A model generated the notes under the pieces. The model worked only from the letters and a program-made list of their open reading frames with translations, made no database searches and was not told the DNA's origin. Shown one piece after another: positions 8,893-30,904 of a stretch of 32,000 nucleotides of DNA. Position numbers and translations under genes: made by a program. Source of the DNA: Nostoc punctiforme PCC 73102 (GTDB lineage Bacteria > Cyanobacteriota > Cyanobacteriia > Cyanobacteriales > Nostocaceae); the NCBI RefSeq assembly GCF_000020025.1, contig NC_010628.1, positions 3,210,001-3,242,000 on the forward strand, read 5' to 3'. Within the stretch, counting starts at the first letter, position 1, and the number at the start of each line of letters is the position of its first letter.

Positions 8893-9465
8893 CTACTTAA
8901 GTCTTAAATTAACTTCAGTGAAAGTGAGCGACCAATTACTATTTATATAATTTTGGTCGTAGCCAAGAGGTGGAGTTTCATCAATAATCATTTCTCCATA
9001 TCTAACTGTGGCTAATCTATTGTTGTAAATAAAGCGATCGCCTAATTCCACACTACAAAAGTCAACTACCTTGATTGGGCTGAATTGATTGTATTTACTA
9101 GACTCCGAAATCAGGATTAATTTTTGTAAAACCTCCAGAATTACTCGCTCTTTTTGAATAACTGTTGCTTTAAATCCCCGTTTAATTGTACTTGCACCAT
9201 AGCCAGTACGACTAAAAGTAGTCTTCAAACCTGGGCTATCCCCTAATCTATTTGTTTCTGGTGAATAGTCGGTGAATAATTTTAAATAAACATAGTTATT
9301 TGTGTCTGTTTCTTGATAATGGGTAGGGTCAAATAAATAAAACCATTTAGATGCAATTTGCAAATCCTCAATGACTGCAACGGGAGTTAGTACTAGCAAT
9401 GGAAGTCTGGCTAGTTTTCGCTGACAGTTAATTTGAGCATTGGCGATCGCTTCTAATATGGTCAT
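8893..9465 (-). CDS. Tail-tip protein immediately after the tape measure gene (190 aa), Dit-position
   Basis: ATGA start/stop overlap with the tape measure gene (9462-9465). The distal-tail-protein call rests on position only. Confidence 0.55.
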   Translation of the reverse strand: MTILEAIANAQINCQRKLARLPLLVLTPVAVIEDLQIASKWFYLFDPTHYQETDTNNYVYLKLFTDYSPETNRLGDSPGLKTTFSRTGYGASTIKRGFKATVIQKERVILEVLQKLILISESSKYNQFSPIKVVDFCSVELGDRFIYNNRLATVRYGEMIIDETPPLGYDQNYINSNWSLTFTEVNLRLK

Positions 9466-12400: not shown

Positions 12401-15400
12401 CATTGAAAATTTGATTTTCCCGCTCTAAATCATCAGCAGTTAGCTTTGTCCCCTTCCTTAGTTTTTCATTGGTTTCTGAAGTTAAACCCAACGCACTACG
12501 GTACTGATTAATTTTTTCCGCAGTGGCTAGCGATTGCTCACCTACAACATCAAGGGCTATTCCAGTCTGACTGAAATTTTGGATTAACCTATCAGATTCT
12601 CTATTTTGTCCAGTTTTGGACACCGCCCCTGCCGGATCTGTAAAGACAGTTGGGTTTGTCGTGAAAGCTGCTAGAGAATTTGCGGCAAGATCAATCGAAC
12701 TTCCAATTGTCCCAGGTATCCCCCCGAAAAATTCCCCAACGCGATCGCCAAATCCTTTTTCTGGCGTTCCGGTTGCACCTTGGCGAATTGCTTCTAGCTG
12801 AGATTTAAACTCCTCTAGTCCCTTAGTAGTTAATTGCCCCTGATCGCCTACTCTCGCCAAGGTTTCACGGAGTTGGTTGAATTGCCCAGTGGTTAGATCG
12901 CCGGATAATCTCAGTTGCTCAAGACGCGATTCTACCTGGGTTGCTGATGCATCGGGGACAATTTCAGCTTTGAATTGCAGTAAGCGTTTCTCCGTCCCAA
13001 ACTGCTTAAATAAATCTGTATCCTGTTTGAGGACTTCCCCTAACCCTGTGGCAGCTTCATTTGCGGCTTTTCGCAAGCCAAATAAATCTTCTCTGAATAT
13101 GGCGATCGCTGCTGCTCCAAGTGCAAGCAATGGGCCAAGCGGGCCAAGTGTACCCAGTAATCCTGAAATTGCATTGCCAGCTACACCAAAACCACCTTTA
13201 AGCAGATTGAGACTGCCAACTACCCCACCCTTAAGGACATTGGCGAGTAGTCCAGAACTACCAGAAAGCAAACCTTGCGCTGTTGCCAGCCCCCGTGTCA
13301 AACCTGTGTTGATAGTCTTGAGGCTGATTTCGGTCGTCAGTAATGTATTAATTGCCCCCAACGGGCCAGTGGTTCCGAATAATACGTTTCTGCCAAATAT
13401 CCGCGTTTGTGCAAGTCCTCGTTCTGCAAGTTCGTCAGCAGTTAAAACTACGGTGTGTGTGGCCGTTGCTGTAGTTGCAGATGCAAGTACGGTGGCTTGA
13501 GCAGCGATCGCCCCTGTTGCTTTTGTAGCTCCCTGTTTTACATTTTCATAAGCGATCGCTACCGTCGCCCCCGCATCAATAGACTTGATATTTTCAAAAC
13601 TAGAGGCTACTGCCTTCCCAACAATATCTGCCTCTTGCTTAATCCGCCCCAATCCAGATGCAAAGGGTTTACCATCAGCCCCTAATATTTGCGGTGGGGC
13701 AAAAGCCCCCACTGCTTCAGCAATCCCTAGACCAACATTTTTGGCACTTTGAGCAACTTCTCCCAAGGGGAGACGCGAAACGCGATCGGCTACTGCCTTC
13801 TTCCCTTGTTCTGCTGCACCTTTGGTATCGAGTCCGGTAAAGCCCGCAATGTTCTTGTTAAATACCTCACCCGCTTTGTTGCGAACTGCGGCGGCAGCTT
13901 TGGTGACAATATTTTGTTTCTCAAGCGCTCCCGTTGTTGCCTCTACACCAAGTCGAAACCGTTGGTCAATGCCAAATAGTTGTAATGCAACTGCTACCAG
14001 CCCTTTGCGCTGCACAATCAACTCTTTGATGACTGCCAACTCTTTCCCTAGTTGACCGGATAGCAGCAGTGAGATTGCCCTAACTTGCAAATAAGTTGAT
14101 GCCAGGGTGAGCATCGTTTGAAATAGGATCGTTACCGCGCTTGCTGTGGCGCGGGTCGTAATCTGAAATACGATAAACTGTCCAACTGCTTGCTTAACTG
14201 GTTCTGGTAGTCCGCTAAAAAAGTTAGCAATTTTTTCTAATACATCAATACCAGGTTCAAATACTGGGGCAACAGAAGCGGCGATTTTAATGATTAATTC
14301 TTGGAACTTGTTGGCGATTTGTTGAAATTTGGAGATGCGATCGCCTGTAGCAATTTTAAATACTTCATCTAAACTACTAGCACTTGCACTATTGACACTT
14401 TGCAAAGTAGATGAAAGCTTTTGCCCGTCTTGAGCGAGCAGTGCCAATACTGTACGGAATGCTACCTCTTCCGGGAAAATATCTTGCAATACCTTGGCAT
14501 TTCCACCGGCTGCTTTATTGAGATCGATCAGCGCTTGGGTAAAACCTTTGGCTTGAATTTCTGCTTGGTCAAAACGGATCTTTTGTCCATTGAGTGAGAG
14601 TTTATCAAGTGCCTTTTGCGCTTCTGGTGTCTTTTGAATGATAGTCCCAGCAATTCGCTGTACTCCGGTTAGTGCGGTTGCAGTATTCACCCCTTGAGTT
14701 GTTAGCACTGCTGTACTTGCGGCAAGGTCAGTTAATCCAATTCCTGCTGTTTTGGCGCTCGTCGCGGTTTGTCCAAATCCCAGTGATAACTCTTGGATTG
14801 TTGTCAAACCAGATTCAACAATACTATTTAAGATTGCGGCTGCTTTGCCGGATTCACCGGCTGATAACTGGTAGGCGTTAAGGGTTTTAGTCAGGAGTCG
14901 CAACGTTTCACCAGGATCGGCAGACGATCCACCAGCTTGCCCAATACCCACCAGCTTTAGCCCATTTGTTAAAACCTGTTGTGAGTCGGCGGCTTTGGTG
15001 AATCCTGACGATAAAACCTCGTACTGTCCGGTTAATGCATTTGTAGAGGAGACAGTATTGTTTAATTGCTTGTTTACAATATCCTGAACTTGGAAGGCGT
15101 TTTGTAACTGCTCTTGCTGGTTGGCGCGGAGAGCATTACCTGCTGCGTCAAAGTTAACGTTACTTCTAAGAATGGTTCCCGCACGGGACGCTGCTTGTTC
15201 AAATCTTCCTAAATTTTGTACTGCCGATATCGCAAAGGCATCTAATGAGGCTTCACTACCTTTAACGGCATCAGTGAGAGTGTAAAAGTCCTCAATACCC
15301 TGAGTACTAACCCCAGACGATCGCAACAAATCTAAAGTTTGCGGTATCCGAGCGTACACTGCCGCCGCATCCTGTACGCCCTTAGCAAAGGTGAGCGCCT

Positions 15401-15686
15401 GCCCACCAAGAAAGGTAATGTCAGACAGTGCAGAGAAAGTTTTAAGCGCCTTTGAATTGACATCAGCTAACTTTCCAATTGCGCCACCAAACTTTTGGGC
15501 ATTCTCAGTACCAAGGACAAATTGACCAATTGAAGACTCTGAAGCTTTTTGTAACCCTTTGAATCCCGCAGCTAGTGCAGCAGTACCGATGGTTAACCCT
15601 GTAAAACCAAGAGAAATATTGTTGACGGTAGCGATCGCGCCGTCATCAACTGCTTTCAATCTTAGGGTGGTAGTGGTATCTGCCAT
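9462..15686 (-). CDS. Tail tape measure protein (2074 aa)
   Basis: Giant ORF. The N-terminal third is A/G/T-rich and contains a hydrophobic glycine-zipper stretch (GGVVGSLNLLKGGFGVAGNAISGLLGTLGPLGPLLALGAAAIAIF). The rest is a Q/E/K/R/L-rich coiled-coil-like sequence. Coupled tail-tip genes follow. No sheath-sized ORF is present in the window. Confidence 0.9.
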   Translation of the reverse strand: MADTTTTLRLKAVDDGAIATVNNISLGFTGLTIGTAALAAGFKGLQKASESSIGQFVLGTENAQKFGGAIGKLADVNSKALKTFSALSDITFLGGQALTFAKGVQDAAAVYARIPQTLDLLRSSGVSTQGIEDFYTLTDAVKGSEASLDAFAISAVQNLGRFEQAASRAGTILRSNVNFDAAGNALRANQQEQLQNAFQVQDIVNKQLNNTVSSTNALTGQYEVLSSGFTKAADSQQVLTNGLKLVGIGQAGGSSADPGETLRLLTKTLNAYQLSAGESGKAAAILNSIVESGLTTIQELSLGFGQTATSAKTAGIGLTDLAASTAVLTTQGVNTATALTGVQRIAGTIIQKTPEAQKALDKLSLNGQKIRFDQAEIQAKGFTQALIDLNKAAGGNAKVLQDIFPEEVAFRTVLALLAQDGQKLSSTLQSVNSASASSLDEVFKIATGDRISKFQQIANKFQELIIKIAASVAPVFEPGIDVLEKIANFFSGLPEPVKQAVGQFIVFQITTRATASAVTILFQTMLTLASTYLQVRAISLLLSGQLGKELAVIKELIVQRKGLVAVALQLFGIDQRFRLGVEATTGALEKQNIVTKAAAAVRNKAGEVFNKNIAGFTGLDTKGAAEQGKKAVADRVSRLPLGEVAQSAKNVGLGIAEAVGAFAPPQILGADGKPFASGLGRIKQEADIVGKAVASSFENIKSIDAGATVAIAYENVKQGATKATGAIAAQATVLASATTATATHTVVLTADELAERGLAQTRIFGRNVLFGTTGPLGAINTLLTTEISLKTINTGLTRGLATAQGLLSGSSGLLANVLKGGVVGSLNLLKGGFGVAGNAISGLLGTLGPLGPLLALGAAAIAIFREDLFGLRKAANEAATGLGEVLKQDTDLFKQFGTEKRLLQFKAEIVPDASATQVESRLEQLRLSGDLTTGQFNQLRETLARVGDQGQLTTKGLEEFKSQLEAIRQGATGTPEKGFGDRVGEFFGGIPGTIGSSIDLAANSLAAFTTNPTVFTDPAGAVSKTGQNRESDRLIQNFSQTGIALDVVGEQSLATAEKINQYRSALGLTSETNEKLRKGTKLTADDLERENQIFNAQKARNENLISGIEKNIAEQKKVSEGIKDPELKATFDDRIKLLETERQTLEKRNEALKAGREEFTKYYTETLPGLKRAITESSNLGQALGNAQANFGQQFKLDAQGKATPFLKDISTLRNEATQLQSQVLESYQGGLFEQLAGPTQDGKPLFAPTGAAEAEVIKRLRAVRDDKIKLPDGTEGFRLSQSDRLAATGQISEIAQSNSKQISEELKVGAERVKLQQQQRVISTEDAEKEIAKIQLQGIRETLIQKEIEIKEYAQFPVRKAQLEREAAAIRVQIEQTVTAEDNRQLEKRRGLRQEAFNIEIEQIKARQSERQITERDAQTQISQIQIKASRDRLNNLVQDFNKSGQTSVELSNKIAIARSQLRQQEAAEVERLLNLEQERQKRIIANTTQLQTLTLQRQSSGVDSQSKDIEQRSQLLNSANQLQGVLNQATESGLQNQLKFTGDLEKRAAIETQIAENKVKNLAVTQQQEQVSLATQTQINKLNLERETIQLRIQKIENQRQLAELNLELIRANRDKRSPEEIKAIELQIQGAQQQSDLLQEQGDRLERSKVQQSQIAENSQKELNIKQGIAQTDAQIELTLTRRREVQAGIEKQVKDIELASQRINLAGQIQIQQSEAVSKAYDQQKSVLQATQTFVKGRVDFVTGELQIASELSKNDRQRKDIAQLIAAIKIQSLERQLTIEGQVLDLNLAQQAAQLEQEKIRNRVSQAQSKAGIAQAQSDLAKAQLDPNATPQSIEAAQLNLQAKVEEAISTKFAGRLLDQQGKIQSTLGGLEKQSFNERSLLQRDQAQVEFAQSLNPREGRRLLRDIRDRSLSRALGVGRDEVGSTGEAFVAATKSRFLGEGTLEPLQQFRADRVANRINPETPSLQLQFPDFEKFRQDQLSRFQEFGYKLPQKLSSQDLNTLGQAGIIEAVNKLNTLVEQKLSTPTEANVPVSIVNNFNGDDAKKAATQTVTDIRKELYDLGVLIQRS

Positions 15687-17322: not shown

Positions 17323-18954
17323 TTAACTAAACAATTTATGCAATTCTTCCATCTCAGAATTAGTCTCAGCTTGCAATGCCGTAGCCGCGTCTTGCGGCAC
17401 TCCTCCCAATTCCATTGGGTTCGTTAGGGCAATAATTACGGCTTCCGAGTCTGGGCTTCTCCCTAATCTGGATTTGGTTTTATCCTTGGGTTCACAGAAG
17501 ATTTCATCTTTGGTATTCGTACTATATCTTGTAGCAGTCAAATCTTGGAATACATACTCTTCATTTTCCAGAGGAGCGATCGCTATTCTCCCACCCATCA
17601 ATAGTTCTCGAAACTGCCAGTACAACTCTGCCTTGAGGTTAGTAAATTTCTGCTTTGGTTCCTCTTTTTGTTTTTTCTTCTTGTAGCTGGGGACATCCCC
17701 AAAACGACAAGGCAAGGCTTGATACCCGGTTTTTTTGAGTTTAGCGAGTGTCCCAGCGCCAACTCCGGTATTATCCACAGCAATTGAGTAACCAGTACCA
17801 AGTAGCTTAATTTGACTTGCTGCAATATCGGCGGCGCGTTCTGTGTCGAGTAAGTCTCCCTTGGTGGGGTGGATTTGCACTTCGTACAATACTGGCCCGC
17901 GTAGCAGTGCCAAAGCGTGAGGATCGCCGCCGTCGCCAACATCTAAGCCTAATCTCCAAGGGTAACGCTTGGCGATCGCATCCCAATATTGTGGATTTTG
18001 ATCGTAGAGCGATCGCGCTTGTTTGAGTAGGGTGAGTAGGATGATGCCGTCTGCTGCATCTTCTGCGTATTCACCCATCACCCGCCCTTTCCAATATGCT
18101 GAAGTTTCAAACTTCTCTCGCCGGACTCGTTCTATCCAATCAATTGAGATTGCGCCGGGGATGCGATCGCGCGGGAATTCTGGCGGCCACTCTTGCTGTG
18201 GTTTAATTTCTCCATCTTCATTGATGATATGTTCGGCTACTTCAGGTTTTAATCTGTAAACGCCATCAGCACACAGTTCATAGGCCCACGAAACATTAGG
18301 GTGACTGAACGCAGAAACAGTCAGGCAACGCTTATCTAGTTTACAAGTCTTAGCAAATTGCGACTGCGGATCTACTGGGTTCCCTATCCTCAATCCCCTA
18401 TTATCTGAGCCAGTCAAACAAGCAATAAACCCGTTATCAATCTGTGGTGTTATCCCGTCCGCTTCATCCTCAATCAGCAATTGCTTTTGTCTATGCTGAC
18501 CCTGAAAGGAATTCTCTGAATAATCACGACTAGTTATGCCAAATGCGTACACAGTCTCAGAAAACAGCAGTTGCATAATGTCGCATCTACCGCCCAATTT
18601 GGTTTTGTGCAAACCGTGAATTTTTCGCAACTCTGCCCACAGTATCCACTTAACCTGATCTTCACTAGGTGCAGTAGTAATTGCCACACCGCCCACGCAA
18701 AACAGGAAATAGATTACAAGTAATGAAGCGATAAAGCTTTTCCCGGTTCCGTGTGCTGCTTTGACATTGGTGATAGGGCGATCGCGTACTGATTCAGCTA
18801 TTATTGTTTGCTCGTTAGTTAGCTCAATACCCAGTTCGTTTTTAAAAAAACCTACCGGATCGTCAGCGTACTGGGGAAAGGGGATAGGACGCGAACCACC
18901 ATGAACTAGTGCGGCATATTTAGATGACGAGGTTTTAAGTTTGGCTAGTCCCAT
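17323..18954 (-). CDS. terL: Terminase large subunit
   Basis: Walker A-like AAHGTGKS and Walker B-like LLIEDEADG. The C-terminal RNase H-like nuclease region begins LGLDVGDGGDPHALAL. Size is 543 aa. Sits in a cluster with the small subunit. Confidence 0.9.
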   Translation of the reverse strand: MGLAKLKTSSSKYAALVHGGSRPIPFPQYADDPVGFFKNELGIELTNEQTIIAESVRDRPITNVKAAHGTGKSFIASLLVIYFLFCVGGVAITTAPSEDQVKWILWAELRKIHGLHKTKLGGRCDIMQLLFSETVYAFGITSRDYSENSFQGQHRQKQLLIEDEADGITPQIDNGFIACLTGSDNRGLRIGNPVDPQSQFAKTCKLDKRCLTVSAFSHPNVSWAYELCADGVYRLKPEVAEHIINEDGEIKPQQEWPPEFPRDRIPGAISIDWIERVRREKFETSAYWKGRVMGEYAEDAADGIILLTLLKQARSLYDQNPQYWDAIAKRYPWRLGLDVGDGGDPHALALLRGPVLYEVQIHPTKGDLLDTERAADIAASQIKLLGTGYSIAVDNTGVGAGTLAKLKKTGYQALPCRFGDVPSYKKKKQKEEPKQKFTNLKAELYWQFRELLMGGRIAIAPLENEEYVFQDLTATRYSTNTKDEIFCEPKDKTKSRLGRSPDSEAVIIALTNPMELGGVPQDAATALQAETNSEMEELHKLFS

Positions 18955-19518
18955 CTATCCAAAAGGATTGGAAATATCCAGCCTAGTAATAACACAGTCT
19001 TCTTCGTAAGTTCTTAAAAATTCCCATGCTTGCTTGTTCCATCTAGCATCAGCAAGTGCGTTGTGTTCGCCTTTGTCTTGTTTTGGTAATTCTGGATCGC
19101 CTAGCTGTTTACACCATTGCTTGATGTCGTTGGCGTACATTGGGAACCCTTTGGGAAGGTCAATCATTGCCCCAAATAACTGACAGAAGGCCACCCAATC
19201 GTAATCAGCATAGTATCCCCAAAATTCTGGCTTCCACCCTTCCTCAAAATGTGGCTCTTTGGGATACCAGCTTAGAAACCTGACAATACTGGTAGCGATC
19301 GCCTGTCTTGTTTTCCATCGATCGCTACCAGTGCAAGTTAAAAAGTCGCCTTCTAAGTGAGGGAGAACGTTTGCTTTAACCCAATTACTTGCTCGACTGA
19401 AATCACATTCAGCATTTTGAAAATATAGCTCACGCCCATCTTCGGCAACTATGCCAATTGAAATAAGCTCTATTGTACGACCATCTTCAATAAATTCTGT
19501 ATCTAGCCAGTAGTGCAT
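18955..19518 (-). CDS. DEDDh 3'-5' exo(ribo)nuclease, Rv2179c-like
   Basis: The N-terminus MHYWLDTEFIEDGRTIELISIGIVAEDGRELYF closely matches the Rv2179c family N-terminus as I remember it (DTEFIEDGRTIELISIGVVAEDGRE). Further acidic motif YADYDW and H-x4-D motif HNALADARW. Abuts the terL start. Confidence 0.8.
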   Translation of the reverse strand: MHYWLDTEFIEDGRTIELISIGIVAEDGRELYFQNAECDFSRASNWVKANVLPHLEGDFLTCTGSDRWKTRQAIATSIVRFLSWYPKEPHFEEGWKPEFWGYYADYDWVAFCQLFGAMIDLPKGFPMYANDIKQWCKQLGDPELPKQDKGEHNALADARWNKQAWEFLRTYEEDCVITRLDISNPFG

Positions 19519-19808: not shown

Positions 19809-20402
19809 TTAATCTGGTTTACCAATCGTTCTCAACTCTTCTTCCATCCTCCCTATACCCTCACCAATTACTCTTGCTTGCTCTGGTGTTGCTACACCTT
19901 CAGCCAACAATAATTGCACCGCATCAAGTACAGGAATATCTTTAGGATACAACCGTAGTCGCTTCATTAATTTTTCTAACGCTGACAATTTATCATGCAT
20001 CGTTACCGTTGTTGTGGTGGTAACTCCGTCTTTACTTAAAGTTTTGGATACTGTAATACTTTTTACCGAAGCCTTGGCGCGATCGCCCCACTCCTCAGAC
20101 TTCTTGATTTTTATGTTATCGCCATCGTACTCTAAGATATCAGTGATCCTTGAAAGGGCGATCGCTGCTACCTCAGCAATAATTTTTACCTCAGACAGTC
20201 CCGCAATTTCCCCTAGATAGGCTTGTATCTTAGTGTTTCTTAGTAGCGCACAAGCGCTTGCAGCAGCGGAGTTATCGTTTTTGACATTGTATCCTGCTCT
20301 GATATATGCACGAGTTTTATTGAGGTCTTTGACGTACTCGTGACAAAACCTCAGTTGCAAGTCTGTTAATTCTTGTGGGTTAGTTTTCTTATCCCCAGGC
20401 AT
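19809..20402 (-). CDS. terS: Terminase small subunit (Terminase_2-like)
   Basis: The N-terminal LTDLQLRFCHEYVKDLNKTRAYIRAGYNVKNDNSAAASACALLRNTKIQAYL fits the small-terminase HTH pattern (LT.KQ..F..EY....N...A...AGYS). Same strand and cluster as terL. Confidence 0.85.
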   Translation of the reverse strand: MPGDKKTNPQELTDLQLRFCHEYVKDLNKTRAYIRAGYNVKNDNSAAASACALLRNTKIQAYLGEIAGLSEVKIIAEVAAIALSRITDILEYDGDNIKIKKSEEWGDRAKASVKSITVSKTLSKDGVTTTTTVTMHDKLSALEKLMKRLRLYPKDIPVLDAVQLLLAEGVATPEQARVIGEGIGRMEEELRTIGKPD

Positions 20403-20503: not shown

Positions 20504-20860
20504 ATGGCTAGTTGGTCAACAATCGACAGGGAAAGTGAGTTCTATTCAATCTTTGGTGAGGAAAGAATACCTATACTTTCTATAGTTCCAATCATCCCAA
20601 GAGTTGCAGGATCGCCGCCGTGCTACGTAGTATTAGGGCGTGAACTACCGCCACACATGGTAGAACAGCTAGCCATTAAATTGTTTGATGTGTGGCGACC
20701 AGAATGTGAGTCATTGCAAATGGCGACTGACTACATATTGAAAGGACTGCCATTAAAAACCAGTCATTTTAATGGGTGCGGGACGGATGATTATTTTCAA
20801 ATGCAGATGGGAACAGCTTTAAACGCTGCAATCCATTTTGCTTACAGCGATCGCCCATAA
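20504..20860 (+). CDS. Hypothetical protein (118 aa), plus-strand cassette gene 1
   Basis: Opposite orientation to all flanking virion genes. Its stop codon lies inside the left copy of the 25-nt inverted repeat. No family recognised. Confidence 0.5.
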   Translation: MASWSTIDRESEFYSIFGEERIPILSIVPIIPRVAGSPPCYVVLGRELPPHMVEQLAIKLFDVWRPECESLQMATDYILKGLPLKTSHFNGCGTDDYFQMQMGTALNAAIHFAYSDRP

Positions 20861-21201: not shown

Positions 21202-21753
21202 ATGGCAGAAGAAGGAGTATGGGTAGTTTCTTGGACGACTCCAGAGTTTGAGCCAATTGTTAGGGTTTCCAAAAACGATCAGGAAGTTTCACTATCTTCG
21301 TTTGCAGCTACCCAACACGCGATCGCTATTTTTAATGCTGCTGCTTACGCCGAATCAGAAGTGGCGCTATTTAAGGCTTTAGTCCCAAATGTGCCTAAAG
21401 GATTTGGTAAGCCTAGCAAAGATGTACAAATGGCATTGATGATGCTAAAAATGCTACGAGATAAACGGGAACCTTTGCCTAGTAATATTAGCGGTATTTT
21501 TGGATTTAATACTCAAAAACCTTTAGTAGAGATTGATTACGGAAAGTTTAAATTACAGTATGAATTAGATGAAGTCAGGTTTCACGCTGCATCACTACTA
21601 GAAGCAGCAGAAGCGGCGAGGTTTGATGCCTTCTGGTTTAAGTTTGGCAACCAAGAGTTAGGATTAGAAGAATTAGAAATACTTGGCATTGTTCAAAAGT
21701 ATCGTCTTTACAAACAGAAATACTCAATTGAAGCAATGTTCAAAAAGTCTTAA
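21202..21753 (+). CDS. Hypothetical protein (183 aa), plus-strand cassette gene 3
   Basis: ORF inside the inverted-repeat-bounded segment. The right repeat copy starts 1 nt after its stop codon. No family recognised. Confidence 0.55.
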   Translation: MAEEGVWVVSWTTPEFEPIVRVSKNDQEVSLSSFAATQHAIAIFNAAAYAESEVALFKALVPNVPKGFGKPSKDVQMALMMLKMLRDKREPLPSNISGIFGFNTQKPLVEIDYGKFKLQYELDEVRFHAASLLEAAEAARFDAFWFKFGNQELGLEELEILGIVQKYRLYKQKYSIEAMFKKS

Positions 21754-24380: not shown

Positions 24381-24620
24381 CTATTGTTCAGCGTTCAGAT
24401 TTTGCCTAATTTCATCAACCGTTATCCCTTGATTTGCAAACATTCGGGCTTGCTGTAAAGCAAAAATTGCAAACTGCTTACATTGAGGATCTTCGATTTC
24501 CACATCAACAGCTTTAGCAAACTCTAGCGCCAGTGCGTTAATTCTGTCGTGCTTGCGGACGCGATCGCTCCCTGGCGTAGGAGGATGATAACGAAAATAC
24601 TCTTCGATTGGGATATCCAT
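24381..24620 (-). CDS. Small YHPP-motif helical-hairpin protein (79 aa from ATG 24620), Acb2/Tad1-hairpin-like by eye
   Basis: The sequence MDIPIEEYFRYHPPTPGSDRVRKHDRINALALEFAKAVDVEIEDPQCKQFAIFALQQARMFANQGITVDEI fits the remembered family pattern F.YHPP....H..I....A..V....P....A...L..A.M[WF]AN..I. The track start at 24704 would overlap the upstream gene by 61 nt. ATG 24620 leaves a 23-nt gap. Confidence 0.5.
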   Translation of the reverse strand: MDIPIEEYFRYHPPTPGSDRVRKHDRINALALEFAKAVDVEIEDPQCKQFAIFALQQARMFANQGITVDEIRQNLNAEQ

Positions 24621-24643
24621 AATTAGCTTGACCAAGCCATAAG

Positions 24644-24988
24644 TTAATTTACGATAGAACCAAGTCCAACAGCGATTGCCCCCACTGCTAAACGACGATG
24701 CCATGTCCCTGGCTCTTTATCTTCTGAATAAACCTTAGAAGTTGCCCAAACCGTATGCCCATCAGCGTCAGGGTAATCATTAGTTCCATCTATAAAAACA
24801 ATCAAGTTTGAATAGCCCTGAGCTATTAATTCGGGCGATACATCTCGCCATAGTTTCACAATAATTGCAGGTCTAATTTCACCTTTATTTCTGCCATCTG
24901 GCAAGACATACAAAACGTGAGTTCCTTCCGTTATTCCAGTCAATTTCTGTGACATATTCACCTCTTGATTATTAAAATTATTTGACAA
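24644..24988 (-). CDS. Small accessory protein (114 aa, or 103 aa from the second ATG at 24955) with a hydrophobic C-terminus
   Basis: The pattern THVLYVLPDGRNKGEIRPAIIVKLW...NLIVFIDGTND...GTWH resembles a small beta-barrel family common in phage accessory regions, from memory. The C-terminal AVGAIAVGLGSIV is glycine-zipper-like. Confidence 0.5.
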   Translation of the reverse strand: MSNNFNNQEVNMSQKLTGITEGTHVLYVLPDGRNKGEIRPAIIVKLWRDVSPELIAQGYSNLIVFIDGTNDYPDADGHTVWATSKVYSEDKEPGTWHRRLAVGAIAVGLGSIVN

Positions 24989-24998
24989 ACGATCGCTG

Positions 24999-25457
24999 CT
25001 AACCTCCCAAATATCCAGCTACATAAGCTGCAACTTTCTCAAGTAGCGCCGGATGCCAAAAAAGGAAAGGGCGATCGCGTTGCAACCTAGAAGCTTTGGC
25101 AAGTGCCGTACCAAATACGAGTTCAGTTTCAGTCACCTCAAATACTTCATAAGGGTTTCCTGCCGCCGTCATGCTTTGGAGTAGTTCGCCAGTGTCGCGG
25201 AGGATCTGACCATTACGACGGATGGGACGAGCAAGTAAGTATTCATTACTCAAAGCTTCCCAATTCTCACCGCCCAGTACTTCACCACCTGTTTCTGTGG
25301 CGGGGGATGACTGGAAGCGTAAATCCACATCTTCTTGGATAAGTAACCGGATAGCGGGGCCAGCTTCCCTAATATCCTGCACTCTGAGTTTGATACCTTG
25401 CAGAAGTTCCGAAGCTTTTTGTAAGTCGCCTGTATTAATTTCAAGTGTTAATCCCAC
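24999..25457 (-). CDS. Virion morphogenesis / tail completion protein (Mu G / P2 gpS-like)
   Basis: The pattern DLRFQSS...GENWEALSNEYLLARP...GQILRDTGELLQSMT...ELVFGTALAKASRLQRDRPF fits the Phage_tail_S-type consensus as I remember it (RF...W..LS......IL.DTG.L..S......V.GT). Confidence 0.6.
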   Translation of the reverse strand: MGLTLEINTGDLQKASELLQGIKLRVQDIREAGPAIRLLIQEDVDLRFQSSPATETGGEVLGGENWEALSNEYLLARPIRRNGQILRDTGELLQSMTAAGNPYEVFEVTETELVFGTALAKASRLQRDRPFLFWHPALLEKVAAYVAGYLGG

Positions 25458-25731
25458 TAGCGATCGCCTCCTTTATTGCTTTGGCTATCTGGTCAATAGA
25501 TGAGGGCGAAAGCTCTGAATTATGTGCATAACCATGCCCAATATATTGACCAACAAGTTGAGGTGAATCACTGTATGAGCGGTTAATTATTTCTAGCGCT
25601 TGAACGACATCACCAAGATTTCGCGGTGTCGCTCTTAGTGCAAGTAATCGCTCCAATAAGCTTCTTAAATACTGTTCCGCTTCGCTTATTTCTTTGATAA
25701 TTTGCTCGTTATCTGGCTGCATTGATTTCAA
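25441..25731 (-). CDS. Hypothetical helical protein (96 aa)
   Basis: ORF in the neck region, overlapping the downstream gene start by 17 nt. No family recognised. Confidence 0.5.
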   Translation of the reverse strand: MKSMQPDNEQIIKEISEAEQYLRSLLERLLALRATPRNLGDVVQALEIINRSYSDSPQLVGQYIGHGYAHNSELSPSSIDQIAKAIKEAIASGINT

Positions 25732-25751: not shown

Positions 25752-28400
25752 TTAGCTGTGTGCCTTGTAGCGGTAGTAGTCTATAGGGGTAAACCCAGTA
25801 ACCGCAGAAAGGGCAAGCCCCGCACCTGCAATCAAACGCTTACGTTTTGCCTTTCGGACTATAACGGTTTTGCCTTTTTTTGTGCGGCGAGTGTAAGTGC
25901 TGCTAAAATTAGCCGAGCAACAACAGTGGCGTTTCAAAACACGGCGTTTAAGTCTACGTTTCAATCCTGCGAAAAACGCGGTCTTGGGGTTTCCCCAAGT
26001 GGAGCGATTTTTCAAGACAGTACCAAATTCCGCCGTTTTAATTGGGTGGCGAGACGCTGCAATGCTATTACCACCAATTCGTCTTTTAGCGACTCTAGAA
26101 CCGCTTCCTTCTCCGAATTTGTAAGTATGCTGTAAGCTGGCAAGGACTTCATCGTATACCTCCTTTTCTACTTTTTTGGGATTCTCACCATTGGCTATGC
26201 GTTCAGAGGCGCGGTTAATTGCGGTTGATGTTGCACCTGATAAGTTCTTTTCTTTATCAAAGGCATCAAGCGCTTTGGATGCTGTCTCTGAGATTTCGGC
26301 TGATTCAGCTACATTTATCTGGTTGCCAGCCTTAGCCAAATCTTCAGCAGCACGCGATCGCCCCACTGTGCCAAATAGCTTTTTCTCTCTAGCTAGTTGA
26401 CGTTTAATCGAAGCTTGGATTTGCGCTTTTTCCACAGCAAGCGATCGCGTCTCTGGAGAAAATCCAAGCAAGTCAAACAACCCACCTTGGGATTCCTGCA
26501 CTTTAGGAGCGCCAACCACCATATCGGTTAATTCCTGGATGGTATCGTTGTTAATTTTCTTTCCTCGTTTCTCCTCCTTCTCAATCAGGTCTACCAATTC
26601 TTGCTGCTGTTTGTGGTCTTTGAGTGCGTTACCAATTGTCACGGCTCGTTGTTCGGGTAGCGTTCCCTGTACCACGCGGAAGAATAATGGTTCATTAAGT
26701 CGGGATAAAGCTAAACCATCAGTAGCAATTTTTTCACGCATTGGTATGCCCTTGCGTTCTAAATCTTCTCGACTCACTCCAGAATCGCGGAAGAATTTAG
26801 CAGCATCTAATGCATTGCCACGACCCTCAGCTATGTTAGTTAAAGCACCAACAGCGCGGGCTTCTTGCGGAGATTTGGCTTTGATGAATTTAGCAGTCAT
26901 GGTTTTGACACCAAGCGCCTTGGCTCGTTCGGTGCGGTTGTGACCATTCACTACATATACTTGCTTGTCCTTGGGATCTTGCCAAACTTGGATAATGCCA
27001 GCTAAGTTTGCATCCCAAGTTTTAACTCCAGAGAGGGAGCCAACTGAACCAGTAGAAGTTTGAGCGCCCAAGATTTTGTATTGAAAGCGTTTCGGGTCAA
27101 CTTTTAGCTTTGACACCTCCACTTCAGCAATACCACTAGAAAGTACCTGCCTTGCTCCAACGCTAGCAGCTGCTTGGGTTAGTTGTAGTTTTTCCTTTTG
27201 GGACTTTAACTTGGCTTGGCGATCGCCTACCGATTGTAATAGTTGGCGATCGTAGTCGTTTTGAGGGAGTCTCCCTTGCTGGGCATCACGGTAAACTTGG
27301 GCGCGTTGCTTGGTGTACTGCTTGTAGGTGATTGGAGTTTTGGTTTTGATTCCCGTTTTTGGGTCGGTGTAGCACTTGCGGTTGTAGGGGATGAAGGTTT
27401 TACCGCATTGCCAACCACCACGCCCAAACTCTATCCTTCTGCCATCTGCCCTCTGCCCTCTGCCTTCATTAAATTCAGCGCGGCGTTTGATGCGTTTTTT
27501 GAATAGTGGCAGTCCACCTTGTAAATCTTTGTCGTATGCTAACGGGTTGAATAGGGAAGTTTGAGTATTTTTCTGAGCTTGTTGCTCAGTTTTGAGTTTA
27601 GCCATCCGCGCTTTTTTGGCTTGTTCTTCCCATGATTTAATTCGGGATTGGTCGCCTGACTTTTTAGCCTCAGCTAACTCTTGATTGGCGTAAGCTTCAC
27701 GGTCAGCAGCCGATTTAAGGTCTTCAGCTTTGATGAGCTTTTTATTAGATTCCTTGGGTGGGGGCGGGGTGTCTTTGTCGTTCCCGTCTAGGTTTAAGGC
27801 TGGTTTATCCTTTACTCCAAATCTTTGTGCTAACTCTGGATACCCCTGTTGTAAATCTGGGTATCCCTGCTTGGCTGCATTGTGGTTAACTTTGCTCCAA
27901 ATTTCGGCATACTTACCTTTGTTGAAATCGTCAAAAGCTTTTCCAGTTGTCTCTTTATCTTTTTTTCTAGTGGCACTGCTAGCTGCACGGGAAAGGCGAT
28001 CGCGCTCCGTACTCACCTGCTCGTATTCACGATAAACATCAGGTGGTAGGTAATCTTTTAATCTATCTTCATACTGATTAACTGTTAATTCTTTAGGATT
28101 GTCTAACTCTTTTAATTTAGATGCCCATTGAGAGCGCTGTTTTTGAATATCAACAGATGGTGGTTTATTTTTCCATCCTGGTACAGCAGCCCGACGGCGA
28201 TCGCGTATAGCCTGCTCTCTATCTTTATATAGCGTTTGTGCAGCTTTACCCTTAGAACCGACAATCTTCTGGTAAACCTGATAGTTAATTGGGGTCTTTA
28301 ACCGTTTACCAGTCTTGGGGTCAGTCCAACATTTGGCGCGATTAGGGATGAAAGTGCCACCACAAGGCCAACCAAATTCGGCGCGGCTGTAATCGGACAT
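25752..28400 (-). CDS. Large multidomain protein with a ParB/Srx-like domain (882 aa from ATG 28400; 906 aa from the track start 28472)
   Basis: ParB-N-like motifs: VSKLKVDPKRFQYK and YVVNGHNRTERAKALG (GxxR...A). Two ~40-aa Cys-containing modules (GWPCGGTFIPNRAKCWTDPKTGKRLKTPINY and GWQCGKTFIPYNRKCYTDPKTGIKTKTPITY) plus a degenerate third. K/E/Q-rich linkers. Basic plus hydrophobic C-terminus. ATG 28400 avoids a 50-nt overlap with the upstream gene. Confidence 0.75.
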   Translation of the reverse strand: MSDYSRAEFGWPCGGTFIPNRAKCWTDPKTGKRLKTPINYQVYQKIVGSKGKAAQTLYKDREQAIRDRRRAAVPGWKNKPPSVDIQKQRSQWASKLKELDNPKELTVNQYEDRLKDYLPPDVYREYEQVSTERDRLSRAASSATRKKDKETTGKAFDDFNKGKYAEIWSKVNHNAAKQGYPDLQQGYPELAQRFGVKDKPALNLDGNDKDTPPPPKESNKKLIKAEDLKSAADREAYANQELAEAKKSGDQSRIKSWEEQAKKARMAKLKTEQQAQKNTQTSLFNPLAYDKDLQGGLPLFKKRIKRRAEFNEGRGQRADGRRIEFGRGGWQCGKTFIPYNRKCYTDPKTGIKTKTPITYKQYTKQRAQVYRDAQQGRLPQNDYDRQLLQSVGDRQAKLKSQKEKLQLTQAAASVGARQVLSSGIAEVEVSKLKVDPKRFQYKILGAQTSTGSVGSLSGVKTWDANLAGIIQVWQDPKDKQVYVVNGHNRTERAKALGVKTMTAKFIKAKSPQEARAVGALTNIAEGRGNALDAAKFFRDSGVSREDLERKGIPMREKIATDGLALSRLNEPLFFRVVQGTLPEQRAVTIGNALKDHKQQQELVDLIEKEEKRGKKINNDTIQELTDMVVGAPKVQESQGGLFDLLGFSPETRSLAVEKAQIQASIKRQLAREKKLFGTVGRSRAAEDLAKAGNQINVAESAEISETASKALDAFDKEKNLSGATSTAINRASERIANGENPKKVEKEVYDEVLASLQHTYKFGEGSGSRVAKRRIGGNSIAASRHPIKTAEFGTVLKNRSTWGNPKTAFFAGLKRRLKRRVLKRHCCCSANFSSTYTRRTKKGKTVIVRKAKRKRLIAGAGLALSAVTGFTPIDYYRYKAHS
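27439..27466. repeat. In-frame heptamer array CTGCCAT CTGCCCT CTGCCCT CTGCCTT inside the ParB-like gene
   Basis: Four 7-nt units. 27434-27467 matches 15772-15805 (the right arm of the intergenic hairpin) at 31 of 34 positions in the same orientation. On the minus strand it encodes EGRGQRADGRR. Confidence 0.85.
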
Positions 28401-28422
28401 TCTAAACAGTACCGTTCCCACG

Positions 28423-28962
28423 TTAGATCCCCCAATCAATAGAACTGGCAGCAGCCGGATTTCGCTGCTCAACTATGCTATAGCTACGGCTAACAACATC
28501 GGGTATCTCTCCTCTCTTAGGTACTCCCGGTAGAACCATAGGCTCAACTCGATTGAATGCAGTTGATGGTGGAGGAGCTAATCCAGGCAACGTAATCCCG
28601 ATCGCCTGACACTCTTCCTTGGCTTGCTTAAATAGGATCGCACCATACCCCTGATCGCCCCCCTCCCCTTGAGTTTGCTGGTAATGGGTACTCATAATTT
28701 CAGCAACCACAAATTTCTCAACAATGGATGCAAGAATTCTCAATGATTGGGTAGCATCGTTAGGGACAGGTAGCTCATAGAGCATAGATAGAGCCATGTC
28801 TAACTTGGCTTCTACCTGTTCGCCAAGTTGCTCGTATAAAGAGTAATCAACTTGTTTTGCTCCGAGTGCTTGGGTTTGCCCTAGTGTCGGTGGCCCATTG
28901 TTTAGTTCAAGGCGGTTTTTGAGGCGACGGGCGATCGCCTCTGGAGTTGTGTATTTAAGCAT
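28423..28962 (-). CDS. Head-tail connector-like protein (DUF1320 / Mu gp36-like), 179 aa from ATG 28962
   Basis: The N-terminal MLKYTTPEAIARRL and the central ...VEAKLDMALSMLYELPVPNDATQSLRILASIVEKFVVAEI resemble the DUF1320 pattern as I remember it. ATG 28962 overlaps the upstream stop by 8 nt (AATGCTTAA), consistent with coupling. The track start at 29010 is less likely. Confidence 0.5.
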   Translation of the reverse strand: MLKYTTPEAIARRLKNRLELNNGPPTLGQTQALGAKQVDYSLYEQLGEQVEAKLDMALSMLYELPVPNDATQSLRILASIVEKFVVAEIMSTHYQQTQGEGGDQGYGAILFKQAKEECQAIGITLPGLAPPPSTAFNRVEPMVLPGVPKRGEIPDVVSRSYSIVEQRNPAAASSIDWGI

Positions 28963-29284
28963 TGGGATTGTAACCTGTGTAGCCTCTAGCCTTAATTTGA
29001 TACCTACCAACGTTACCTTGAGCGGTTATCCCTAAACCTCGCTCCCCTATACTTGGGCGAAATTCCTCACGGATGTTACGGCGATCGCTCCTCACAGAAC
29101 CCACACCTAAACCGTAGGCTTCACCTTTATCAATAGGGACGGATAGCCTAGCAGAAATTCGCCCCCGTTCAACCTTGAGACGATTCCTTGATTTGCGGAC
29201 AATTTGTTGCTTGCCGTTGCGGATGCGGGTGTAGGTAGAAGAGAAATTAGCTTGGCTGAATAACGCTACCAGTGGGTAATTCAT
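28955..29284 (-). CDS. Highly basic small protein (109 aa; 16 R + 5 K vs 7 D/E)
   Basis: The charge was counted from the track translation. The N-terminal ANFSSTYTRIRNGKQQIVRKSRNR matches the C-terminal region of the ParB-like protein. It overlaps the upstream gene by 38 nt. Confidence 0.55.
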   Translation of the reverse strand: MNYPLVALFSQANFSSTYTRIRNGKQQIVRKSRNRLKVERGRISARLSVPIDKGEAYGLGVGSVRSDRRNIREEFRPSIGERGLGITAQGNVGRYQIKARGYTGYNPNA

Positions 29285-29768
29285 CGGTTATCGCCTGCCC
29301 AAAGAGTGTTTGATCGAATAGCAATTTATCTGAATAAGTTTCCCACTTCAGATTTTTACCAAGGGGGACGCGTAGCTTTAAATCTTCCAAGCTAGTAAAG
29401 GGAGATTTTACTCGCTCCTCTGCTACCTTTTTGGCAACAACAATGCTGACACCTTCAAGGGCAGCGATCGCCTCTATGGTTGCGTCGTTAATGTGAATCC
29501 TTTCAGGAGTAGGGACTACCACAGTAGAAGTTCCGTAATTAACTTGCTCGTTGTTGGGAGTTTCTGCACCAATTTTTATAATGGTTTCTTCAAAACTGCC
29601 AGCAAAGGGGCTAAACGTTGGGATATCTGGGGAACCTTGAGTAACATATTCTTCAGTTAGTAGTGCCGTAGGCAATTCACCTGGCTTATATTCCCGTGGA
29701 TGGTAAAAGTTGCCTTGATACTGTGCGTGTTTTTTCAGCGTTACAGGTTGATTTGGATCGATTGTCAT
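29247..29768 (-). CDS. ComEA-type helix-hairpin-helix DNA-binding domain protein (173 aa from ATG 29768)
   Basis: IHINDATIEAIAALEGVSIVVAKKVAEERVKSPFTSLEDLKLRVPLGKN fits the ComEA HhH consensus (NiN.A..eeL..LpGIG...A..Iv.yRe..GpF.s.eDL..V.GIG). ATG 29768 forms an ATGA overlap with the capsid gene stop. Confidence 0.65.
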   Translation of the reverse strand: MTIDPNQPVTLKKHAQYQGNFYHPREYKPGELPTALLTEEYVTQGSPDIPTFSPFAGSFEETIIKIGAETPNNEQVNYGTSTVVVPTPERIHINDATIEAIAALEGVSIVVAKKVAEERVKSPFTSLEDLKLRVPLGKNLKWETYSDKLLFDQTLFGQAITDELPTGSVIQPS

Positions 29769-30904
29769 CACGCCACCTTCCTTGCTGCTAGCTGCTTGGG
29801 TTGTGCAATCCAAGGAATCATTCTGCCTACTGCGTAAGAGCGGCTTTCCGGTGGTGAAGATTTTAAAGTTTCTTCACTTTTAATAAAGATTCCTGGTTTG
29901 CCTTTAGCTTCAATCGTGGGGCCAAATAAACGTTTGCTCATGCCTTTGGTTAAGAAAACATAAGTATCGTTGGGGAAATATCGCCCTCTAATATTTTGCC
30001 CTGGCGCGATTTCAATTTCATACTGAGCATCACTAACCCGGAGTTTAGGAATTTTCAACTCAGTGGTAATTTTCTCCAAAATTGTTTGCCCGACCATTGC
30101 TTGCACAGATGAACCAGGGACGTTGTTGATTATCCCTAAACCGAGTGCGTAGTTGCGGGTTGATTGTTGCCTGAGCAAGTTATCCATCAAGTCTTGCGAT
30201 AACACGGTTTCATCTGGATAGTAGCCATTGAGATCGTAGAATGCGCGTGCGTGCCGCTGCAAATTGTCTATACCATTGGCGTTAGTGGCATCAGTCCAGA
30301 TAGCGCTGCCTAAAGTGTTACCAGTCAAAGGGGCCGGGAATAAAGTTGGCTCGGTATTGTATTGCAAGCGAAAGCGGGAACCCGATCGCGTATCGGTAAA
30401 GTCGCATAGTCCAGTAGTGACGGTTTGCCACCACAAAACATTAGCGGTTTTCACAACTCTAGGTTGGAGACTGTCTACCGTACCAATTAGCAGATCCACA
30501 AAATAGCGGGGCATATTCTGCATTTGCGCCAGTTCCATCATCCGGATCTCATCTTCTTCATTGAAGATGTGGGAGATCGCAATCTTACCGAACGACGAAC
30601 CTTCAATTTTGGTCAAGCGACCTGCACGGGTTTGGGGGATTTCTTGACCTGTGGCAATGATAGACGCGATCGCCATGTTCCTTTCGATCATGTATTCCAA
30701 CACCCGGAAATCGTCGGTCATTTCCATCGGTGCGTACTCATCAGGGATGATGTATTGGTCAAGCAGTTTCATATCAGGCTGCTTACCTTCGGTTTTGAGG
30801 CGAATTTCCTTATTAGGATCGACCAAGAATGCGCTTGTATTGTCAATCAGCGCATCTATCTTGGTTTTAATTCGGGCTGTATTGAGAAATTTTGCAATAG
30901 ACAT
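29768..30904 (-). CDS. Major capsid protein (lambda gpE-like, tentative family)
   Basis: 378 aa, preceded by a decoration-like gene as in the lambda D-E order. The C-terminal pattern YFPNDTYVFLTKG...PPESRSYAVGRMIPWIAQPKQLAARKV parallels lambda gpE FLPDNTMVLGN...DPAREFTMIQSAPLMLLADPDEFVSVQL, from memory. Confidence 0.7.
   Translation of the reverse strand: MSIAKFLNTARIKTKIDALIDNTSAFLVDPNKEIRLKTEGKQPDMKLLDQYIIPDEYAPMEMTDDFRVLEYMIERNMAIASIIATGQEIPQTRAGRLTKIEGSSFGKIAISHIFNEEDEIRMMELAQMQNMPRYFVDLLIGTVDSLQPRVVKTANVLWWQTVTTGLCDFTDTRSGSRFRLQYNTEPTLFPAPLTGNTLGSAIWTDATNANGIDNLQRHARAFYDLNGYYPDETVLSQDLMDNLLRQQSTRNYALGLGIINNVPGSSVQAMVGQTILEKITTELKIPKLRVSDAQYEIEIAPGQNIRGRYFPNDTYVFLTKGMSKRLFGPTIEAKGKPGIFIKSEETLKSSPPESRSYAVGRMIPWIAQPKQLAARKVA

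Follow-up and report, generated by a model that had tools for sequence, protein, structure and literature searches.

A strongly basic, modular protein with a ParB-like core in the head module of a Nostoc prophage: a candidate cargo packaged with the phage genome

The DNA considered here, which we call the window, comprises 32,000 nucleotides of Nostoc punctiforme PCC 73102 (NC_010628.1, positions 3,210,001 to 3,242,000), and the locus of interest within it belongs to the late operon of a siphovirus-like prophage, where it spans the region from head to neck. Downstream of its major capsid protein (MCP) gene follow the genes of a helix-hairpin-helix (HhH) protein of 173 amino acids (aa), a small basic protein of 109 aa, a protein of 179 aa and a giant basic protein. 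The question that this locus raises is whether the first two and the last of these form, as an earlier note on this DNA had proposed, a co-packaged set that coats the phage chromosome or delivers it to the cell, or whether they are simply neighbors in a late operon. The answer proposed here keeps a part of that idea: for the giant protein, several indirect lines of evidence give an even chance that it belongs to the "polyvalent proteins", as a strongly basic cargo built of modules that is packaged and delivered with the genome; the 109-aa protein is plausible as its companion by the motifs that they share, while nothing but adjacency links the HhH protein to them.

The gene content and gene order described in the earlier note hold, and the same set was called independently in two other assemblies, as proteins of 173, 109, 179 and 882 aa. 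Three relatives with the same gene order were compared, namely a 44.7-kb assembly contig (L001) and prophages of Nostoc sp. ChiSLP01 (L007) and Nostoc sp. CHAB 5836 (L008). The upstream anchor of the cluster is the MCP of 378 aa (29768-30904, minus strand; phrog_29 at 1e-12), which shares 26% identity with the protein annotated as MCP in Pseudanabaena phage PA-SR01 (tblastn, E 8e-22); a genome scan based on this protein returned two Nostoc relatives only, the same scan of viral contigs gave no match, and a megablast of 10 kb against the phage records in GenBank found no isolated phage similar at the DNA level. The ratio of non-synonymous to synonymous divergence (dN/dS) is 0.08-0.13 for the three genes singled out by the note, as against 0.07 for the MCP, with a synonymous divergence of at least 1.0. 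The three genes are real, under purifying selection as strong as that on the capsid gene, and because the constraint is comparable, the small basic open reading frame (ORF) is a genuine gene. As to how tightly they are packed, the overlaps at 29247-29284 and 28955-28962 are there, while at 29768 the genes overlap by a single base (TGATG) and not by the four bases of ATGA that had been described; in neither case can translational coupling be taken as the sign of a dedicated set, since such packing is normal for late operons.

The giant protein is encoded on the minus strand at 25752-28421 (the strand also of all its parts given below), and has 889 aa when read from the GTG at 28421, with 174 K+R against 102 D+E. 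Gene callers place the start at the ATG at 28400, which gives 882 aa; judged by alignment, the true start is the GTG, because the N-terminus MGTVLFRM... that it adds aligns with the starts of the relatives. From this start the order of the parts is a leader, a Cys-hairpin module, of which there are two copies, a spacer that is helical and charged, a ParB/Noc-like pair of domains, and a C-terminal stretch with a basic, beta-hairpin-like motif that we call type B and a Gly/Ala-rich helix. The leader, of 16 aa (MGTVLFRMSDYSRAEF, 28374-28421), ends in A-E-F and is the same on four large cargo proteins. It is followed by the first copy of the Cys-hairpin module, called type A here (GWPCGGTFIPNRAKCWTDPKTG..., 28257-28373), which distant relatives carry in a four-Cys version. 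No family was matched by the N-terminal module of 300 aa, which is helical, charged and of low complexity. The second type A copy (27303-27416), which comes after RRAEF...RRIEF and opens the ParB module, is modeled as a beta hairpin (pLDDT 82-87). At the other end, what we propose to label the C-terminal delivery module (25791-26031) is composed of a TAEF junction, a basic peptide, CCC, a SANF junction, the type B motif SSTYTRRTKKGKTVIVRK and the Gly/Ala-rich hydrophobic helix LIAGAGLALSAVTGF. The position of the CCC, directly ahead of the last A-x-F of the cargo, is the same in the window (25914-25922, minus strand), in L007 (~14555) and in L008 (~14710).

The earlier note had named this a ParB/Srx-domain protein, and the predicted fold bears this out. 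An AlphaFold2 (AF2) model of residues 345-800 (pLDDT 77.5) was compared by Foldseek with known structures, and the matches obtained were to Noc (7nfu, E 6e-6, TM-target 0.54-0.57), ParB (6t1f, TM-target 0.59-0.60) and KorB (8qa9), with E values ranging from 6e-6 to 1e-3, over about 220 columns that span the N-terminal domain and the helical domain adjacent to it; sulfiredoxin (6ky4) was matched at E 0.09 over 91 aligned columns, and phage ParB proteins were matched in BFVD. As modeled, the core (26481-27143, located by AF2, Foldseek and invariant columns) has the alpha/beta N-terminal fold of the ParB/Srx superfamily, followed by a helical domain of DNA-binding type. Three motifs are invariant in it, DPKRFQYK, NGHNR and NIAEGRGNxxDAAKFF, of which N-G-H-N-R is invariant in 30-32 homologues and follows the model's second long strand; on the model, the three would fall where boxes I-III of ParB are expected. 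Compared with the chromosomal and plasmid ParB, Noc and KorB (6t1f, 7nfu, 8qa9), which are CTP-dependent DNA clamps, the likeness is in the predicted fold of both domains, and the invariant Arg of GHNR would correspond to the active-site Arg of box II (GxxR, here GERR), with the other two motifs as candidates for boxes I and III. The core differs from them in that it is only 13-19% identical and is embedded in the cargo of a virion module, at a locus without a ParA partner and without a recognizable parS, and no C-terminal dimerization domain was identified in it.

Homologues of this core take four forms: (i) standalone proteins of about 544 aa in the head modules of other cyanobacterial phages, encoded between the portal and capsid genes in three of the loci compared (L002-L004); (ii) C-terminal fusions to Portal_Mu, to the lambda-type portal (Phage_portal_2), to Phage_Mu_F and to Zeta_toxin, with methyltransferase domains also occurring in homologues; (iii) a segment of the product, of 2563 aa, of the gene at the position of T7 gp16 in the Prochlorococcus podovirus P-SCSP1u; (iv) and by fold, in BFVD, parts of viral proteins that exceed 1000 aa, among them several named [quoted passage not shown]. 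Genes at that position have been speculated to encode internal virion proteins (PMC9860041). The same fusions account for the label "portal protein" that PHROGs attaches to the giant gene (25752-28472; phrog_21, 5e-59), which was rejected as a fusion artefact, since the match is found only at profile positions 998-1322 of 1362, that is, in the non-portal tail of the fusion proteins. A separate observation on L002-L004 (e.g. L002 2411-4405) is that an inorganic pyrophosphatase (InPase) domain is joined to their portal protein and that a 649-aa protein with a faint ADP-ribosyltransferase match is encoded downstream, fusion and protein being further cargo of polyvalent type.

In its genomic position the giant gene belongs among the virion structural genes, between the MCP and the neck genes, in the window as in L001, L007 and L008; and in the slot flanked by the 179-aa gene and the neck genes the four related prophages carry cargo with different middles. 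In the window the middle is the charged spacer plus ParB; in L008 the cargo, of 564 aa, has ParB only and keeps the leader; in L007 there is an unrelated protein of 649 aa without ParB; and in L001 there are two proteins, one of 953 aa with ParB and one of 1001 aa that matches a DNA methyltransferase family (phrog_15406 at 2e-214). What is conserved lies at the ends. The leader, M-G-x-V-L-F-(R/T)-M...A-x-F, is common to all the cargo proteins of the four prophages, most of which also carry the type A module, GWxCGxTFIPxxxKCxTDPKTG, and most of which end in CCC, A-x-F, type B (S-S-T-Y-T-R-R-x-K-x-G-K-x-x-I-V-R-K) and a Gly/Ala-rich hydrophobic helix. This C-terminal module is kept in the 649-aa protein of L007, the 564-aa protein of L008 and the 1001-aa protein of L001 (here type B and the hydrophobic helix, without CCC); the exception is the 953-aa ParB protein of L001, which stops at the junction of TAEF plus basic peptide and is without type B. 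The leader also heads proteins of 156-201 aa in L001, L007 and L008, whose genes are flanked by those of a putative prohead protease and of an acidic, scaffold-like protein. It is the fusion of the core to portal and MuF proteins, its presence in the protein at the gp16 position, its polyvalent neighbors by fold and this swapping of cargo that indirectly support a packaging and delivery of the giant protein with the genome, in keeping with the polyvalent class.

Directly after the ParB cargo of the window lies a gene for a protein of 96 aa (25441-25731, minus strand) that has a homologue in L008, where the cargo is ParB, and none in L007, where it is not; in L001 a different gene, of 137 aa, follows. 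The product of the 96-aa gene may be a cargo-specific partner.

The modules are joined by a recurrent motif, A-x-F, in its fuller form (F/Y)-P-x-(L/I/V)-(A/C)-x-F. The giant protein contains six copies of A-x-F, against 1.1 expected (p<0.001), of which four stand exactly at module boundaries. The motif is also present in the N-terminus of the MCP (MSIAKF), and in the relatives it is found twice in the scaffold-like protein and also near the C-terminus of the putative protease. In other lineages of cyanophages, ParB-cargo homologues have the form (F/Y)PxLAxF at their N-termini and junctions. In the 2563-aa protein of P-SCSP1u, neither the A-x-F junction motif nor the type A module was found, and T7-like phages are not known to have a prohead protease.

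If these elements are taken together as a system, its operation could be pictured as follows. The leader and/or the type B module would target the cargo into the procapsid, the 16-aa leader acting as a capsid-targeting propeptide; the prohead protease would then cut the cargo at the A-x-F junctions, or at (F/Y)PxLAxF in the wider family, and the pieces would remain in the head near the portal and the DNA, a position that is implied by the portal and MuF fusions in the relatives. From there they would exit the head together with the genome, and the ParB-like module would bind, clamp or nick the DNA, and so protect or establish the incoming chromosome, in the way suggested for P1 DdrB/DarB, while the methyltransferase cargo of L001 would act like P1 DarB.

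Several points weigh against this picture and have to be set beside it. Beyond the domains and motifs themselves, packaging, cleavage, ejection and DNA binding are what we infer for this protein. Its ParB core escapes all the sequence models used (Pfam ParBc and ddrB-ParB, NCBIfam, and hmmsearch against the PDB), with no ParB model matched either by the window protein at E<=0.1 or by 32 aligned homologues at E<=0.01, and the ParB-like pair is the single recognizable domain of effector type in the giant protein, fewer than in classical polyvalent proteins. With respect to the junctions, the Phe of A-x-F abuts the type A module in nearly all the homologues, and may serve in the structure of that module instead of marking a cleavage site; the MCP of L001 does not keep the A-x-F; and the protease of the relatives is weakly identified (phrog_976 at 1.4e-4 over 60 residues), with no match in Pfam or the PDB, its gene lying outside the window. 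Finally, scans of viral contigs for the N-terminal leader and type A module, with a single sequence and with an alignment, found no more carriers, and a scan of metagenome contigs for the N-terminal module gave only two spurious matches of 22 residues in glycosyltransferase loci, so that the group bearing the leader is very small and the comparative power is limited.

The general idea of a co-packaged cargo is not new and fits the published concept of polyvalent proteins. DdrB-like ParB/Srx domains have been described in phage polyvalent proteins beside virion genes, predicted to be packaged and injected, with P1 DdrB as the prototype, which undergoes processing and incorporation into the head (Iyer et al. 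2017, PMC5512222). The likeness to the Dar antirestriction system of P1 drawn in the earlier note is therefore apt for the giant protein, as part of a concept already in print, and the statement that typical siphovirus head modules lack such a set was too strong, as ParB polyvalent proteins near virion genes are precisely what that work describes (PMC5512222). Like these systems, the giant protein is large, made of several modules and encoded amid virion genes; it has a domain of ParB/Srx type, its relatives include fusions to portal and MuF, the corresponding slot of a sister phage holds a DNA methyltransferase as cargo (cf. DarB), and it is predicted to be processed and to enter the head. 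It differs from them in having no match to ParBc, ddrB-ParB or any Pfam family and no zincin-like peptidase domain, and in having a leader, a Cys-hairpin and type B modules of its own; the processing proposed here would be at A-x-F by the prohead protease, and not by an internal metallopeptidase.

The internal proteins of T4 offer a second comparison. They carry a capsid-targeting sequence that is cleaved by gp21, at a site of the form L/I-x-E. Here as in T4 there are small basic proteins, and several proteins from the head region that otherwise differ have a short leader in common at the N-terminus, which would be removed by the prohead protease, the proteins being injected with the DNA. There is no sequence similarity between the two sets, the motif here is A-x-F or (F/Y)PxLAxF, and A-x-F is also found internally, between modules, in the manner of a polyprotein. 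A bolder proposal, which we regard as doubtful, is that this group of cyanophages packages protease-matured basic "core" peptides together with swappable effectors, from polyprotein-like precursors with a common grammar of leader, (F/Y)PxLAxF junctions and type B anchor. That such a grammar is analogous to the maturation of adenovirus core proteins and to the capsid-targeting sequence of T4, having evolved independently of both, is put forward with the same reserve. If true, it would be usable to load arbitrary cargo into phage heads.

The 109-aa protein (28955-29284, minus strand; pI 11.3) has 21 K/R against 7 D/E, exactly as the earlier note had counted, and a net charge of +14. Its N-terminus, MNYPLVALF-SQANF, contains two junction motifs, and is followed by the type B motif SSTYTRIRNGKQQIVRK and a Gly/Arg-rich core of 75 aa; its dN/dS is 0.08-0.11. 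The orthologues are enlarged, to 219 aa in L007 and 320 aa in L008, through the addition of a hydrophobic helix, a further small module of basic character and more copies of type B. When 1.84 billion representatives were searched exhaustively by HMMER with this protein (basic109), only 11 proteins were found at E<=0.001, of which 10 are modular arrays and the weakest (P0090, 1437 aa, E 6e-4) looks spurious; (F/Y)PxLAxF is present throughout the family. No match was found in Pfam, PHROGs or NCBIfam, and the profile search of the PDB returned noise only. The comparison with protamines or histones holds for the charge, which is all the resemblance that the sequence reveals to histones, HU or protamines; no relation of sequence or fold goes with it, and a coating of DNA is an argument from charge only. 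An idea that it might be of the ribosomal protein L27 / Prp type, suggested by the leader, in which F is followed by a small residue, and by the motif TRNGK, was rejected (hhalign probability 0.2%, noise in the PDB profile search). Because the junction and type B motifs are shared with the giant protein, the 109-aa protein most likely joins it in the delivery set as another internal protein of the head, a small one, which may serve either in the neutralization of the DNA or in its ejection.

The HhH protein (29247-29768, minus strand; 173 aa) stands apart. It is acidic (pI 4.9) and under constraint (dN/dS 0.09-0.13), and in it a disordered linker connects a conserved beta region at the N-terminus with an HhH domain of ComEA type at the C-terminus. 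The domain assignment of the earlier note is sound as far as it goes: HHH_3 (PF12836) is matched at 29373-29501 on the minus strand (aa 105-147 of the 188-aa ORF) with 27.4 bits against a cut-off of 27, that is, at the Pfam threshold, it is present in nine of nine homologue clusters, and the region given before, 29352-29495, was roughly right. These nine clusters are all the homologues there are, and all lie within this phage group. Against the PDB, the family profile matched 9yi2 at 2.4e-7, the ComEA-related 2duy at 0.01, and the HhH repeats of EEPD1. The hairpins, on the evidence of their residues, are degenerate, hairpin 1 being E-G-V-S and hairpin 2 P-L-G-K where the canonical form is G-I-G, and the AF2 model (pLDDT 55.8) was too poor for a fold search, with low confidence in the HhH region and only the N-terminal 45 residues modeled with confidence. 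The resemblance to the ComEA-type (HhH)2 domain (HHH_3, 2duy) is thus confined to about 45 C-terminal residues of the 173, and the protein differs in its degenerate hairpin glycines, its acidity and the absence of a competence context, its N-terminal two-thirds being without a known relative. It was found to carry neither the leader nor the type A and B motifs; a tblastn search with it against phage records gave no match, and a literature search on ComEA-like virion proteins returned nothing relevant.

In L007 (936-5030) and L008 (1826-5974) the MuF minor head protein, of 1364-1382 aa and with a long coiled coil, has a clear HHH_3 domain of ComEA type (3.3e-12), and its C-terminal part has a weak match to P1 Hdf-like antirestriction (phrog_1620, E 0.007). 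Because the MuF protein of L007 itself carries this domain, a contact with DNA through HhH inside the heads of this phage group is plausible. The HhH protein of the window is probably a separate minor head-associated protein, DNA-contacting or structural, joined to the basic and giant proteins by adjacency alone. The 179-aa protein (28423-28962, minus strand) is conserved (dN/dS 0.06), with synteny kept in L001, L007 and L008, and was called connector-like in the earlier note, for which there is only its position: no match was found in Pfam, PHROGs, NCBIfam or the PDB, nor any similarity to known adaptor families of the HK97 gp6, SPP1 gp15 or Mu gp36 type. From the place of its gene it may be a head-tail adaptor.

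Other explanations of the locus have to be considered against that of a packaged cargo. The giant protein might never enter the capsid, being instead an intracellular factor of partition, silencing or transcription, like ParB, KorB or Noc, or a nuclease, whose gene has come by chance to lie in a late operon; the shared motifs would then be elements of protein-protein interaction or localization. The best fold matches, which are to bona fide chromosomal and plasmid ParB, Noc and KorB and include the helical DNA-binding domain, speak for it, as do the free-standing ParB-like proteins of many phages (BFVD ranks 11-50); we nevertheless consider it quite unlikely, given a locus that has no ParA partner and a gene between those of head and neck, homologous cores covalently fused to portal, MuF and the protein at the gp16 position, and, in the same slot and with the same ends, cargo that is not ParB at all. 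At the opposite extreme, the genes could be ordinary and unrelated members of a head module (a decoration or cement protein, an assembly chaperone, a moron), with motifs spread by recombination or duplication among neighbors. An HhH protein without any shared motif, overlaps typical of late operons, and the frequent recombination evident in the variable basic arrays and the cargo middles would all agree with this. The position of the motif, at N-termini and module boundaries, is kept across lineages whose synonymous divergence is saturated, A-x-F is statistically enriched, and the motif also occurs in the scaffold-like and putative protease proteins, so that to this explanation, too, we attach a low probability.

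A further explanation is that these are proteins of ejection or of a membrane conduit, comparable in function to T7 gp14-16 or the P22 ejection proteins, whose type B motif and Gly/Ala-rich helix would enter the host envelope, the basic modules lining the channel or escorting the DNA through it rather than coating the chromosome. Hydrophobic, G/A-rich segments of 15-20 residues do follow type B in four different proteins, the combination being found at the C-terminal end of the giant protein, in the enlarged basic proteins of L007 and L008 and in the 156-201-aa proteins with the leader, and the ParB core is embedded in a podovirus protein at the gp16 position. The segment is missing, however, from the 109-aa protein of the window, and siphoviruses normally use for this purpose the tape measure protein (TMP), which is present here with 2074 aa; such a conduit seems to us improbable, about as much as the two explanations above.

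The remainder of the window is that of a siphovirus-like prophage in a Nostoc-type chromosome. The 66 HIP1 palindromes (GCGATCGC) in the 32 kb, some of them within phage structural genes, point to a cyanobacterial prophage, and the window's proteins are recorded on a contig of 8.2 Mb. Nearly all the genes are on the minus strand, among them, by family match, the small terminase TerS (19809-20402), the large terminase TerL (17323-18954) and the TMP (9462-15686), and, between TerS and TerL, a 187-aa protein of the "RNase H" family phrog_2259 (18955-19518). The terminase genes lie between tail-chaperone-like genes and the TMP gene and not at the start of the head module, a placement found also in L001. 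Two genes of the opposite strand (20504-20860 and 21202-21753, plus strand), whose products are without informative family matches and are probably morons, break the late operon between the tail and terminase genes. The AT skew of the plus strand is strongly negative at 10-12 kb and 27-28 kb, mirroring Lys/Glu/Gln-rich coding on the minus strand. Among the neck genes is a small ORF at 24381-24704 (minus strand), listed with 107 aa but probably translated from MDIPIEEY into about 78 aa, in which the Acb2/Tad1 hairpin domain is recognized (PF24729, E 3.4e-11, with 43.6 bits where the cut-off is 27); its product is a candidate nucleotide sponge against CBASS or Thoeris; L007 has a different gene, of 98 aa, in this slot.

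In the literature searched, three things appear undescribed: this ParB-like family, missed by curated models and mislabeled as "portal"; the conserved end modules with swappable middles; and the grammar of leader and junctions held in common with a modular family of basic proteins. If the motifs do not direct packaging, what remains is a head module of the ordinary kind, specific to its lineage. Should the leader and A-x-F indeed direct packaging and processing, they would constitute a simple and transferable code for the loading of proteins into the head of a siphovirus, and would explain how cyanophages exchange, in a single slot, cargo for anti-defense or for the establishment of the genome, whether ParB-like, methyltransferase or other. 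Current pipelines miss the ParB-like module or name it a portal protein; the reading proposed here would, if true, offer a first approach to the function of this module, which has a wide distribution in cyanophages, the abundant marine podoviruses of Prochlorococcus among them.

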